Below are positions 32,535-35,888 of a DNA stretch of 64,000 bases, one piece after another. The DNA is taken from positions 160,001 to 224,000 of the forward strand of contig CAVVXN010000002.1 in the NCBI GenBank assembly GCA_963752285.1. The letters are read 5' to 3'. The stretch is from an uncultured Planctomycetota bacterium (GTDB taxonomy: Bacteria > Planctomycetota > PLA2 > JAEUHO01). The notes beneath the pieces are model-generated. The model ran no database searches and was not told where the DNA came from. It saw only the letters and a list, made by a program, of their open reading frames with translations. The number at the start of each line of letters is the position of its first letter. The stretch's first letter is position 1. A program made the position numbers and the translations under genes.

Positions 32535-33008
32535 TCAGACCGAGTGCTCCGGCGCCTCCCCCTTGTACGTGTCCAGCCACGCCCAGTACGCGTCCACGAG
32601 CTCCCGCGTCGTTTCTCCGAGGCGCGCGTCGTCGTGTTCGTCCACGGCGTGGACGAAGCGGCGGAGCGCCTCGCCGAACGCGGCGCGCGCGTCCTCGAAG
32701 CGCGCGACGTCGGCGTCGCGGAGGTCGTGGGGGAGCGTCGCGCCGAGGAGCCCCAGGCCGTGCGCCACGACCTCGCCGCGACGGGCCCGGATCGCCGGCA
32801 GGTCGCCCGTCTGGGCCGCGCTCGCGAGGGCCACCACGACGGTCCGCATGCCGCCGAACGCCGGCGTCACGTCGCCCGGGGGCGGCGCCTGGCGTACGCC
32901 GACCGGCGCCGCGGCGCCCGCGCCCGCGCAGCCGGCCCACGCCAGGGCCGCGGCGAGGAGCGCGCCGAGGGACCGCGCGCCGCGCGTCCGGCCGGCGCCC
33001 GGCCTCAA
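32535..33008 (-). CDS. Hypothetical lipoprotein
   Basis: TTG overlaps the glyQS stop; lipobox WAGC; helical-bundle-like body. Confidence 0.55.
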   Translation of the reverse strand: MRPGAGRTRGARSLGALLAAALAWAGCAGAGAAAPVGVRQAPPPGDVTPAFGGMRTVVVALASAAQTGDLPAIRARRGEVVAHGLGLLGATLPHDLRDADVARFEDARAAFGEALRRFVHAVDEHDDARLGETTRELVDAYWAWLDTYKGEAPEHSV

Positions 33009-34354
33009 GCTTCGTCGTCCTTCCGCGTCCAGGCGCGGATCCGGTCGCGCAGGAAGGCCTCCAGGCCCGCCTCGGGGACGCGCGGCTGCTCCATCGTGTC
33101 GCGGTCGCGCACCGTGACCGTGCCGTCGGCGAGCGTCTGGCTGTCCACGGTGACGGAGAACGGCGTCCCGATCTCGTCCACGCGGCTGTACCGGCGGCCG
33201 ACCGTCCCGCCCTCGTCGTAGAGCGCGCGGAAGGACCCCCGAAGCGTCTCGTAGAGCGTCCGCGCCCGCTCCGGCATGCCGTCCTTGCGGACGAGCGGGA
33301 ACACGCCCACCTGCACGGGCGCGAGGCGGGGGTGGAGGTGGAGCAGCACGCGGGTCTCCCCGTTCGGCTTGACCTCCTCGTCGTACGCGTCGCAGAGCAG
33401 GGTCAGGAAGCAGCGGTCCACGCCGGCCGAGGGCTCGATGACGTACGGCACCACCCACGTCTTCTTCTCCTCGTCGCGGTAGGCGAGCCCGCGCCCGCTC
33501 CCCTCCTGATGGCGCTGCAGGTCGAAGTCGGTGCGGTTCGCGACGCCCTCGACCTCGTCCCAGCCCCACGGATAGCGGTACTCGACGTCGGCGCACGCTT
33601 TCGCGTAGTGCGCGCGCTCGTCCAGCTCCTGCTCGCGGAGGCGCAGGTGCGAGGGCCGGATGCCGAGCGAGCGCCACCAGGCGAGACGCCGATCGCGCCA
33701 GTAGAGGAACCACTCGTCGTCGGTTCCCGGCTCGCAGAAGAACTCGAGCTCCATCTGCTCGAACTCGCGCATGCGGAAGAGCTGTCCGCCCGTCACGATC
33801 TCGTTTCGAAACGCCTTGCCGATCTGCGCGATGCCGAACGGGATCTTGACGCGCGTCGTCTCGAGGACGCTCTTGAAGTTGACGAAGATGCCCTGCGCGG
33901 TCTCGGGGCGGAGGTACACGACCGACGCGTCGTCCTCGACGGCGCCGACGCGGGTCTTGAACATCAGGTTGAACTGCCGCGGCTCGGTCAGCTCGCCGCC
34001 GCACTCGCCCGGGTGCTTCGAGGGCTTCTTCGGGCACGCCGCCTCGCCGAGGCGGTCGGCCCGGAACCGCGATTTGCACGTCTTGCAGTCCACGAGGGGG
34101 TCGCTGAAGCCCGCCACGTGCCCGGAGACCTCCCAGACGCGGGCGGCCATGAGGATCGAGGCGTCGAGGCCCACCACGTCGTCGCGCTCGAGCACCGTCG
34201 TGCGCCACCAGTCGTCCTTGATCTGGCGCTTCAGCTCGACCCCGACCGGGCCGTAGTCGTACGTGGCCTGGAGACCGCCGTAGATCTCGGAGGAGGGGAA
34301 TACGAACCCCCGCCGCTTGGTCAGGGCGACGACGCGGTCCAGGGTCGTGGTCAT
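33005..34354 (-). CDS. glyQS: Glycine--tRNA ligase (homodimeric alpha2 type)
   Basis: KRRGF..PSSEIYGG, LRPETAQG, FRNEI, REFEQME, IEPSAGVDR, anticodon-binding domain. Confidence 0.97.
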   Translation of the reverse strand: MTTTLDRVVALTKRRGFVFPSSEIYGGLQATYDYGPVGVELKRQIKDDWWRTTVLERDDVVGLDASILMAARVWEVSGHVAGFSDPLVDCKTCKSRFRADRLGEAACPKKPSKHPGECGGELTEPRQFNLMFKTRVGAVEDDASVVYLRPETAQGIFVNFKSVLETTRVKIPFGIAQIGKAFRNEIVTGGQLFRMREFEQMELEFFCEPGTDDEWFLYWRDRRLAWWRSLGIRPSHLRLREQELDERAHYAKACADVEYRYPWGWDEVEGVANRTDFDLQRHQEGSGRGLAYRDEEKKTWVVPYVIEPSAGVDRCFLTLLCDAYDEEVKPNGETRVLLHLHPRLAPVQVGVFPLVRKDGMPERARTLYETLRGSFRALYDEGGTVGRRYSRVDEIGTPFSVTVDSQTLADGTVTVRDRDTMEQPRVPEAGLEAFLRDRIRAWTRKDDEA

Positions 34355-34466
34355 GGCGCTCCTCTTCGCGCGGTCCCGCGCGCGGCCGAGGGCGCGATTC
34401 CTACCATCCCGTTCTCGGCGCGCGAGGCGTGAAACGACCTTCCGGCGGGGATGACCGCCGCATGAC

Positions 34467-34514
34467 GCCCCGGGTATTGGGTTCCTATCAACTTGCGAAC
34501 CCAATATGTTGGGG
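34467..34514. promoter_or_regulatory. Tandem NrdR-box-like operators, 32 bp apart
   Basis: ACCCAATATGTTGGGG (34499-34514) resembles the NrdR consensus acaCwAtATaTwGtgt; a degenerate inverted copy GCCCCGGGTATTGGGT lies at 34467-34482. Confidence 0.5.
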
Positions 34515-34782
34515 CATTCCCCGGCGACCCCGCGGCTTTCACGCCAGCCGTGGGGTGAGGGAGGACCGCGGGCCTCTCTTGCTAACCCCCTGCCCCACAA
34601 TGATTTTCGGCTTTGCACTCCGCGCAGCGTCCTTCAGAATCCGCGCGGTGGCGGATTCCCGGAGGCCCTTGACGTTCTCGGGCCGCCCGGGGATCGGATC
34701 GCACGGGGCGCCGGCCGGGGCGGGCGGCGCCGACGGGAGGGTGGCGGCGGGGGCCGCCGAGCGTCGGAGGGGTCGGGCCGAG

Positions 34783-35046
34783 ATGACGAGCAGCGTCGGG
34801 TCGAGGAAGGGGCCGTGGCGGCTCGGCGAGGTCGCCCGGGTCGTGGGGCTCTCCCGACAGACGCTCCACCACTACGCGGCGCTTGGGCTGATCCGGCCCG
34901 TGGCCACCACGCCGGGCGGGCACCGCCTCTTCGGCGGGAGCGTGTTCCGCCGCGTGGAGGAGATCCAGGCCGGCAAGCGGACGCGACCGCTGGCCGAGCT
35001 CGCACGCCCGTCCTCGCCCGCGCCGCGTGGGAGGAAGCACAGATGA
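34783..35046 (+). CDS. Short MerR-family HTH protein with no effector domain
   Basis: GGAGG RBS; WRLGEVARVVGLSRQTLHHYAALGLI.P..T.GGHRLF; stop overlaps the next ATG (ATGA). Confidence 0.82.
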   Translation: MTSSVGSRKGPWRLGEVARVVGLSRQTLHHYAALGLIRPVATTPGGHRLFGGSVFRRVEEIQAGKRTRPLAELARPSSPAPRGRKHR

Positions 35047-35888
35047 CACAGCCCGTGGCGAGTCGTCGTCGGGAGCCGGAACCCTCGGGCCGGGTCGCGC
35101 GCCGCGCGCGCGGTCCCGACATGACGGAGGTCTGGCGCGCGTTCAAGACCACGGGAGACGAGGGGCTCCGAAACCGGCTCGTCGAGCACTACCTCTACCT
35201 CGTCAAGGTCATCGGCAACCGGGTGGCCGCGCGCCTGCCCCGTTCGATCGACGTCCAGGACCTGAGGAGCGCGGGCGTGTTCGGGCTGATGCGCGCGGTC
35301 GAGAACTTCGACCTCGACCGGGGCACGCCCTTCGAGTCGTACTGCGCCACGCGGGTCCGCGGCGCGATCCTCGACGAGCTGCGCGCGCAGGACTGGGTGC
35401 CGCGGCTGGTCCGCCACCGCGCGTCGCGCTACCAGGAGGTCCTGGGCGGACTCCGGCGCGACCTCGGCCGGGAGCCCTCGACCCACGAGGTCGCCGGCCG
35501 CCTCGGCACGACCACGGAGCAGGCCGAGAGCATGCGCCGCGAGTCGAACCTGACGAGCGTCTACAACCTCTCTCCGGTGGAGGAGCGCGACGACGACCCG
35601 CGGATGCTCCGGCACCTCGACGTCCTGATGGACCACGACAGCGACGTCCCCTTCGACCGGTACGTCGCGCACGACCTGGCCCACGCCCTCCAGGGCGTGC
35701 TCGCCGGCCCCGAGCGCACCGTGATCGCCCTCTACTACTACGAGGGCCTCACGATGAAGGAGATCGGCCGCGTCATGGGGATCTCCGAGAGCCGCGTCTG
35801 CCAGATCCACACGAAGACGCTGAAGAAGCTGAAGCGTCACCTGGACGAGCTGGGCGAGACCGCGCGGCGGCTGGCCGTCGCGTCGTAG
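35043..35888 (+). CDS. fliA: FliA/WhiG-family RNA polymerase sigma factor
   Basis: RNRLVEHY, DLRSAGVFGL, RVRGAILDELRAQDWVPR, LYYYEGLTMKEIG.VMGISESRVCQIH. Confidence 0.92.
   Translation: MTQPVASRRREPEPSGRVARRARGPDMTEVWRAFKTTGDEGLRNRLVEHYLYLVKVIGNRVAARLPRSIDVQDLRSAGVFGLMRAVENFDLDRGTPFESYCATRVRGAILDELRAQDWVPRLVRHRASRYQEVLGGLRRDLGREPSTHEVAGRLGTTTEQAESMRRESNLTSVYNLSPVEERDDDPRMLRHLDVLMDHDSDVPFDRYVAHDLAHALQGVLAGPERTVIALYYYEGLTMKEIGRVMGISESRVCQIHTKTLKKLKRHLDELGETARRLAVAS

Follow-up and report, generated by a model that had tools for sequence, protein, structure and literature searches.

What does a box of the NrdR type do in front of an alternative sigma factor gene? The question is raised by a locus of an uncultured Planctomycetota bacterium, which lies in a stretch of 64,000 nucleotides (assembly GCA_963752285.1, contig CAVVXN010000002.1, positions 160,001 to 224,000 of the forward strand) that we call the window and whose own numbering is used below. 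At this locus glyQS on the minus strand and a plus-strand pair, consisting of a small MerR-type helix-turn-helix (HTH) gene and a FliA/WhiG-family sigma gene, are separated by a spacer of 428 bp. A first-pass annotation of the window had described tandem NrdR-like boxes in this spacer, one at 34499 and a degenerate inverted copy at 34467, and had proposed that nucleotide or replication status gates either a sigma-28-type programme such as swimmer-cell formation or glyQS. NrdR, a repressor that senses the supply of DNA building blocks, is described as specific for ribonucleotide reductase, and the single tested exception that we found is topA of Pseudomonas. From an entirely sequence-based analysis, we consider it probable that the spacer holds a conserved NrdR operator, in which the main box (box A) is most likely bound together with a weaker partner (box B or element C), and that the main target of this operator is the merR–sigma operon. 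This reading builds on four observations: the site matches the motif, it ranks high among all positions of the genome, it is conserved, and among planctomycete lineages it follows one type of sigma paralogue. Genes were taken from crude open reading frame (ORF) and tblastn calls made for this analysis.

The regulator on which the initial proposal depended is encoded in the genome (nrdR, TIGR00244, 194.2 bits at a cut-off of 124.65, C5:1468635-1469069), and nrdR was likewise found in 41 of 41 relatives. The sole ribonucleotide reductase gene found is the class II gene nrdJ, while searches of the assembly (89% complete, 4.64 Mb, 73% G+C) gave no member of the NrdD or NrdB family. Two boxes precede nrdJ, CCACGATCGGTTGTGG and CCACGAGATATAGTGG, 31 bp apart. 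Upstream regions of nrdJ were taken from 30 relatives, and the 26 with at least 200 bp were used to build a symmetrical matrix of 16 columns from 40 sites, seeded with the NrdR consensus of the first-pass annotation and calculated against a background of 73% G+C; matches in loci of lower G+C content were re-checked by shuffling. Since the two best sites are spaced by 31–32 bp, as is known for NrdR boxes, in 19 of these 26 regions, the matrix can be taken to describe real NrdR operators. In this genome 167 positions in 4.64 Mb reach at least 10 bits, which corresponds to about 0.02 expected per 500 bp, and the top scores of 22.5 and 20.0 bits belong to the two nrdJ boxes.

Box A (ACCCAATATGTTGGGG, 34499–34514) scores 16.5 bits on this matrix, far above background, and shares rank 6–7 (a tie) among 4.64 million positions, below both nrdJ boxes. 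It carries C4, A6, T11 and G13, and 88% of the bases between C4 and G13 are A+T. In the accessible text of a mutational study (PMC13584703), C4 and G13 are critical for an NrdR box and A6 and T11 seemingly so. The site lies where the G+C content falls to 53% (34460–34519), compared with 72–74% for the contigs, and both the box and the dip are found where they had been placed before. The same is true of the flanking genes: the glyQS start at 34354 is 113 bp from 34467, and the MerR-HTH gene begins 268 bp past box A. Judged by its sequence, the site is an NrdR-type box, far above chance. Relatives support this assignment, as a box of at least 10 bits precedes the sigma orthologue in 23 of 23 loci of the family (f1), with scores ranging from 10.0 to 26.2 bits, and is present in the spacer of all 20 loci that show the divergent glyQS–sigma pair. 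Across these 23 box-keeping relatives, the box sequence varies within the motif and the flanks diverge.

According to the accessible text of the same study (PMC13584703), a lone box is not bound by NrdR. Possible partners were sought by anchoring the 23 family loci on the main box and scoring every offset from −70 to +70. A single clear peak appeared at +41 to +44, on the side of the sigma gene, where all four critical bases are present in 20 of 23 loci, at an expected rate from base composition of about 0.24% per position, and where the partner scores at least 0 bits in 15 of 23 loci, against a background of 0.34%. In the window this partner is the candidate box B (ACGCCAGCCGTGGGGT, 34541–34556), which has all four critical bases at a score of −1.6 bits and lies 42 bp from box A, centre to centre, with a linker of 26 bp. 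Linkers of 25–27 bp are a documented working geometry of NrdR in the accessible parts of PMC12051234 and PMC13584703. Box B had been missed in the first-pass annotation, and the tandem pair proposed there, 34467 with 34499, is the weaker of the two possible pairs. When sites of at least 8 bits with a four-critical-base partner at an allowed distance are compared genome-wide, the nrdJ pair comes first and box A second; the other high-scoring single sites of the genome have no partner box.

The supposed inverted copy at 34467, here termed element C (34467–34482, right half TTGGGT), is a half-site. It scores −4.7 bits, a level met by 0.64% of genome positions, and holds three of the four critical bases, namely C4, T11 and G13 without A6, with 50% A+T between C4 and G13. 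Its linker to box A amounts to 16 bp, and together the two elements form a 9-bp inverted repeat, TATTGGGTT / AACCCAATA. In relatives just the half beside box A is kept (TTGTGT, TCGTAG), and all four critical bases occur at −31 to −33 in just 5 of 23. With nrdR present, a site score far above background and a box conserved in 23 of 23 loci, the refuting outcomes at the sequence level that the first-pass annotation had named did not occur; the spacing to 34467 is kept in few relatives. At the position of element C, a few relatives display a good full box (9.9 bits in L080, 12.6 bits in L083), and because the left element outscores its counterpart in these cases, the family seems to use either partner, with the window holding weak versions of both.

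Within the family, synteny fails as a guide to the target of these boxes, since the sigma gene there invariably has a divergent glyQS beside it. The sister family f2 is uninformative as well, with no box before either gene. In another planctomycete, G041, two boxes that score 10.3 and 16.4 bits are found 42 bp from each other in front of the sigma gene, about 40 bp before an element consisting of TTGACC, 16 bp and TACACT; the gene upstream is co-directional, and glyQS is absent from the locus. At the reductase promoter of the same organism, a box lies between TTGACA and TATGCT. Sigma loci were retrieved from 40 relatives of G041, and 29 of them were scored. A box of at least 10 bits lies within 400 bp of the gene in 11 of these, and for none of the 11 did more than 9 of 500 shuffles reach the score. 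None of 30 sigma loci of these relatives contains glyQS, and this type of glyQS was found in just 1 of the 17 nearer genomes; the glyQS gene of G048 has no box in the 216 bp upstream that were covered.

The distribution was followed on a tree of 61 FliA/WhiG proteins (quick IQ-TREE, with a careful 36-row tree giving the same clades) at a box threshold of 9.5 bits. Boxes are present in 4 of 4 loci of the G041 group, in 9 of 12 loci of a second, 12-row clade, and, within the window's own clade, in 9 of 9 loci of family f1 and 0 of 5 loci of its sister family f2, so that the three box-bearing clades together have a box in 22 of 30 loci. The clade that unites the second paralogue of this genome (C1:75023-75778) with sigma genes located 2–5 kb from flhA shows a box in 0 of 23 loci, and the outliers in 0 of 8. 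Of the 12 loci of the 12-row clade, which have no glyQS beside the sigma gene, 11 show a TTGNNN, 17 bp, TANNNN pair whose end lies at most 2 bp from the start of the box; the box thus abuts the −10 element of the sigma promoter and lies where repressors classically sit, over the transcription start. Two further details of the sigma loci should be mentioned. The second FliA/WhiG paralogue maps to L094:8991-9935 (minus strand; L094 corresponds to C1:66000-85000), about 1.6 kb from a secretin-domain gene (PF00263) and away from flagellar genes. At the loci L103 and L105, the stretch between the promoter-like element and the sigma gene holds a short conserved reading frame, which starts with ATGAAGGGCA (MKG...) and at first sight does not look MerR-like.

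Before the sigma operon of the window, a conserved promoter-like pair is found on the plus strand at 34613–34640, consisting of TTGCAC (34613–34618), 16 bp and CAGAAT (34635–34640). It should be noted that all promoters named here are phylogenetic footprints. The corresponding pattern, TTG(C/G)NN, 15–18 bp, (C/T)A(G/T)(G/A)A(T/C), matches in 19 of 23 family loci. It begins 111–115 bp from the start of box A in 13 loci; in 5 others the distance is 124–126 bp, longer by one helical turn, and in a single locus it is 102 bp. In an alignment, the two elements of the pair are spaced by 16–17 bp. We consider the sigma operon, the first of the two targets originally suggested, to be likelier than glyQS as the target of the predicted operator, because the boxes follow the sigma paralogue where no glyQS is nearby, because the distance from box A to the sigma promoter-like pair is fixed and that to glyQS variable, and because the boxes are paralogue-specific (22 of 30 loci against 0 of 23 in the flagellar-type clade).

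The explanation that survives best next to this one, though we regard it as unlikely, is that the operator controls glyQS alone or mainly and ties glycyl-tRNA synthetase to the state of the dNTP (deoxynucleoside triphosphate) pool. The promoter would then run leftward, with the right half of box A as −35 (TTGGGT or TTGTGG) and half-site C as −10 (CCCAAT, CACAAC), and NrdR would block it in the classical manner. Such a leftward pair, TTGTGG, 16–17 bp and a CACAAC-like element, is readable by eye in many relatives, all 20 family loci in which both genes are seen have glyQS in divergent orientation next to the sigma gene, and the f2 family has a promoter-like TTGCAT, 16 bp, TATTC pair at a similar distance before glyQS. 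In addition, the inverted repeat of the window reads TTGGGT, 17 bp, CCCAAT in both directions, and, the repeat being symmetrical, a leftward promoter directed at glyQS under the same boxes is possible on the window alone. However, the distance between box and glyQS start ranges from 145 to 425 bp, and glyQS owns a conserved GGTA(C/G)AA motif 40–60 bp before its start in most family loci (L004–L024; by eye), which in the window lies at about 34393–34400 on the minus strand (GGTAGGAA) and is possibly the −10 element of glyQS. Moreover, 7 of 8 scored glyQS loci from outside the family are without a box of at least 10 bits before glyQS, the only one with such a box being L027 from another family of the phylum, not f2, and lineages in which this type of glyQS was not found (16 of 17 genomes), or in which it is absent from the locus (0 of 30), still have boxes before the sigma paralogue. 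We therefore retain the merR–sigma operon as the favoured target, with co-control of the divergent glyQS as a possible addition.

Upstream of glyQS, a few observations stand on their own. In the f2 genomes (L025–L032), the TTGCAT, 16 bp, TATTC pair is conserved and is followed by a GAGTATTC/GGAATAC hairpin and then by a G+C-rich hairpin with a T run; this candidate leader, attenuator or small RNA lies 230–290 bp before glyQS and has no Rfam match. A sigma-54 reading of the glyQS-proximal motif was dropped, as it fits one relative alone (by eye). Adjoining element C, the window holds a direct repeat, ATGACC-N5-ATGAC (34451–34466; GTCAT-N6-GTCAT towards glyQS), and a repeat of the form (G/A)T(G/T)AC, 5–8 bp, (G/A)T(G/T)AC with a period of about 11 bp occupies this position in 14 of the 23 family loci (L064–L086). 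Read towards glyQS as TGTCAC-N6-GTCA(C/T), it resembles the direct-repeat sites of OmpR/PhoB-type response regulators.

Several observations weigh against an NrdR operator directed at the sigma operon. Both partners in the window, box B and element C, are individually weak, with a chance level of about 1% each. Box B contains 25% A+T between C4 and G13, which is under the 63% stated as lower limit in the accessible text of PMC13584703. This limit may not hold in the present clade, because box 1 of the genome's own nrdJ has 50%; bona fide second boxes of relatives are equally G+C-rich. In the sister family f2, in which glyQS and the sigma gene lie apart, no box of at least 10 bits was found before the sigma orthologue (0 of 7 loci), and the related genomes are in any case non-independent samples. 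Neither of the two trees resolves the branching order among the three box-bearing clades. The promoter-like pair is a footprint that fails a scan with the E. coli consensus, and an E. coli-type promoter and terminator scan of 34300–34850 found nothing; the symmetrical repeat described above counts on the same side. Finally, the boxes of the family lie 55 bp upstream of the conserved −35 element, centred at about −98 and −140 from the inferred start, and do not overlap the promoter-like pair.

We propose a model in which a rise of dATP would lead to binding of NrdR to box A together with box B (26-bp linker) or element C (16-bp linker), and in which bound NrdR would alter transcription of the merR–sigma operon in parallel with that of nrdJ. 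The dATP/ATP state that shuts off nrdJ would thereby determine how much of an alternative sigma factor is made as well, and a secondary regulon would follow the sigma factor. As a working guess, the effect is repression, which is suggested by the box of the sister lineage that abuts the −10 element of the sigma promoter. With the family boxes 55 bp upstream of the conserved −35, the mechanism may be either occlusion of a second promoter or action from upstream. In the first case, an NrdR-gated second promoter would overlap the boxes, with element C providing the −35 and the left half of box A the −10; a box-overlapping promoter is readable in 12 of 23 family loci, and not by the same rule in the window. 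In the second case, NrdR would act from upstream in a helix-phase-dependent manner. Non-repressive action of NrdR has a precedent, since NrdR activates topA in P. aeruginosa through a single box. Between box B and the promoter-like pair, TAACCC at 34583–34588 represents a conserved CGTCGTAAG-like motif, located 25–26 bp after box B in most family loci.

The genes around the spacer have the following features. The small MerR-type HTH gene, first gene of the operon (34783..35046, plus strand), encodes 87 amino acids and matches PF00376 with 42.3 bits at a cut-off of 28.2. Only the HTH part matches, whereas MerR-family proteins usually combine an N-terminal HTH with a C-terminal dimerisation and effector part, and a profile search gave no match to an effector domain in this protein. 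Its stop codon and the start of the sigma gene overlap in ATGA. The sigma gene (35043..35888, plus strand), named sigma-A type here, encodes a protein that matches TIGR02479 with 219.9 bits at a cut-off of 189.6, as well as PF04542, PF04539 and PF04545 (regions 2, 3 and 4). On the other side, glyQS (33005..34354, minus strand) encodes a dimeric glycine–tRNA ligase (NF003211, 619 bits), and its divergent pairing with the sigma operon is retained in 20 related loci. By tblastn, the MerR-HTH gene was found in 6 of these 20 loci, and elsewhere the leader runs straight into the sigma gene.

We infer that NrdR is the protein that binds the boxes. That the palindrome is instead read by the small MerR-type protein, or by another factor that also acts at nrdJ, appears quite improbable. 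In favour of another protein, neither box B nor element C of the window makes a good NrdR box, and a position upstream of the promoter-like pair is unusual for NrdR. However, the matrix derived from nrdJ upstream regions alone still puts the site at the top, the boxes retain the published C4, A6, T11 and G13 and the allowed linkers of 15–16 or 25–27 bp (accessible parts of PMC13584703 and PMC12051234), and the MerR gene is missing from 14 of the 20 related loci that keep the box. Weakest of all, and in our view very improbable, is the idea that the palindrome arose by chance or is decaying and has no function in this genome. The weak partner boxes and the other unpaired sites of 15–17 bits could be quoted for it, but it is at odds with a box conserved in 23 of 23 relatives, varying within the motif between diverging flanks, and with its place in the second best pair of the genome. 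As general background to the assignment, NrdR proteins such as those of E. coli or S. coelicolor recognise operators from other organisms in vitro.

A control at the RNA level was considered as well. An Rfam search of the intergenic region at E values up to 10 returned just three chance-level rows, and at E values up to 0.5 nothing matched in ten related loci, among them leaders of glyQS and of nrdJ; a T-box or another known leader in the spacer is therefore unsupported.

With regard to nrdJ itself and to NrdR-like sites elsewhere in the genome, some features were noted in passing. Upstream of the nrdJ boxes (L034, i.e. C3 at about 339,700–339,770, and the relatives L036–L058), a CTGTC, 12 bp, TA(G/C)A(G/C)T element is conserved and in several genomes is followed by a hairpin, CCCCCAAGGCGGAGGAGGCCTTGGGG, possibly representing a second nrdJ promoter with a leader structure. 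A tandem repeat with a unit of about 33 bp (GGGGACGCCCACCGTGGCGTC...) is located about 600 bp before nrdJ (C3, about 339,215–339,330). Unpaired NrdR-like sites of 15.7–17.2 bits lie outside long ORFs at C5:2117071, C5:790180, C5:908642 and C5:2339210; the first of them is 24 bp before an OmpA-family gene, and two of the four sit in stretches without ORFs of high G+C content at third codon positions.

The suggestion that the sigma programme is swimmer-cell formation did not hold. FlhA (PF00771) and flagellin (PF00669) were not found in this genome (89% complete). FlhA exceeded its cut-off in 0 of 29 genomes of family f1 and in 0 of 17 genomes around G041 (G041, G042, G047–G061), including every box-bearing one; of the other 24 genomes, which are more distant, 18 have it. 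The flhA-linked sigma genes group in the other clade together with the second paralogue, apart from the sigma-A clade, and every searched genome of the two FlhA-less sets keeps one or two FliA/WhiG-family sigma genes. The canonical −10 motif GCCGATAA is not enriched in the genome, with 3 copies found and 55 expected from composition. A sigma-28 promoter reading of TTTTCGGC at 34604–34611 (reverse complement GCCGAAAA) was rejected, given this lack of enrichment and the lack of a TAAA-type −35 at the right distance (by eye). Since FlhA was found neither in the family nor in the box-bearing genomes around G041, the box-bearing sigma factor is a non-flagellar member of the FliA/WhiG family.

More tentatively, and with somewhat less than even confidence, we envisage that planctomycetes without a flagellum have placed a spare sigma-28 paralogue under NrdR, so that the dATP/ATP ratio, and with it replication and dNTP status, would serve as a checkpoint, at which the reductase and an entire cell-cycle or developmental programme dependent on this sigma factor would be switched jointly. 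The link would be old, extending over at least three clades, and in the present family the operator would have shifted from the transcription start to an upstream, helix-phased position, perhaps working by other means than simple occlusion. The presence of an NrdR-type box before an alternative sigma gene, both here and in several related lineages, suggests that the influence of nucleotide status extends beyond ribonucleotide reductase to a whole gene programme. If this is true, NrdR would head a regulatory cascade via a conserved operator before an alternative sigma factor. The dNTP pools would then be linked directly, at the molecular level, to a gene programme, in a phylum about whose cell cycle and division little is understood. 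It would also point to a role for the FliA/WhiG-type sigma factors that are kept by bacteria in which flagellar genes were not found.

In the literature, with subscription-only papers outside the search, no paper that describes an NrdR site in front of a gene for a sigma factor came to light, and article listings showed no report of upstream control of WhiG or chlamydial sigma-28 by NrdR. The text-form files of the supplement to a chromatin immunoprecipitation study of Waddlia NrdR (PMC4989314) contain no sigma, fliA or glycyl row.

The locus can be compared with several known systems. The NrdR operators at reductase promoters (nrdAB, nrdHIEF and nrdDG of E. coli, nrdRJ and nrdAB of S. coelicolor) share with it the 16-bp partial palindrome with C4, A6, T11 and G13 and the arrangement of two boxes whole helical turns apart, as far as the accessible text of PMC13584703 describes them, and the same motif precedes nrdJ of this genome. 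The predicted operator differs from them in its non-reductase flanking genes, in its weak second box and in the location of the boxes 55 bp upstream of the −35 instead of over the core promoter. The linker of 26 bp between box A and box B is matched by the long-linker NrdR sites of Streptococcus (25–26 bp), and in the accessible parts of PMC12051234 and PMC13584703 four NrdR proteins are reported to bind linkers of 26–27 bp. In contrast to Streptococcus, the long linker is found here at a non-reductase site, while nrdJ in the same genomes retains a linker of 15–16 bp. With regard to its gene context, a counterpart is topA of P. aeruginosa, likewise a non-reductase gene with an NrdR box; according to the accessible text of PMC4409342, NrdR activates this gene from a single box, and mutation of the box changes expression. 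There, the target is a topoisomerase gene and the site is described in one species, whereas here the predicted target is a sigma factor and the box is conserved across several lineages. On the side of the regulated protein, Streptomyces WhiG and chlamydial sigma-28 are, like the sigma factor described here, FliA/WhiG-family members in organisms in which flagellar genes were not found. Both WhiG and chlamydial sigma-28 drive late developmental genes.

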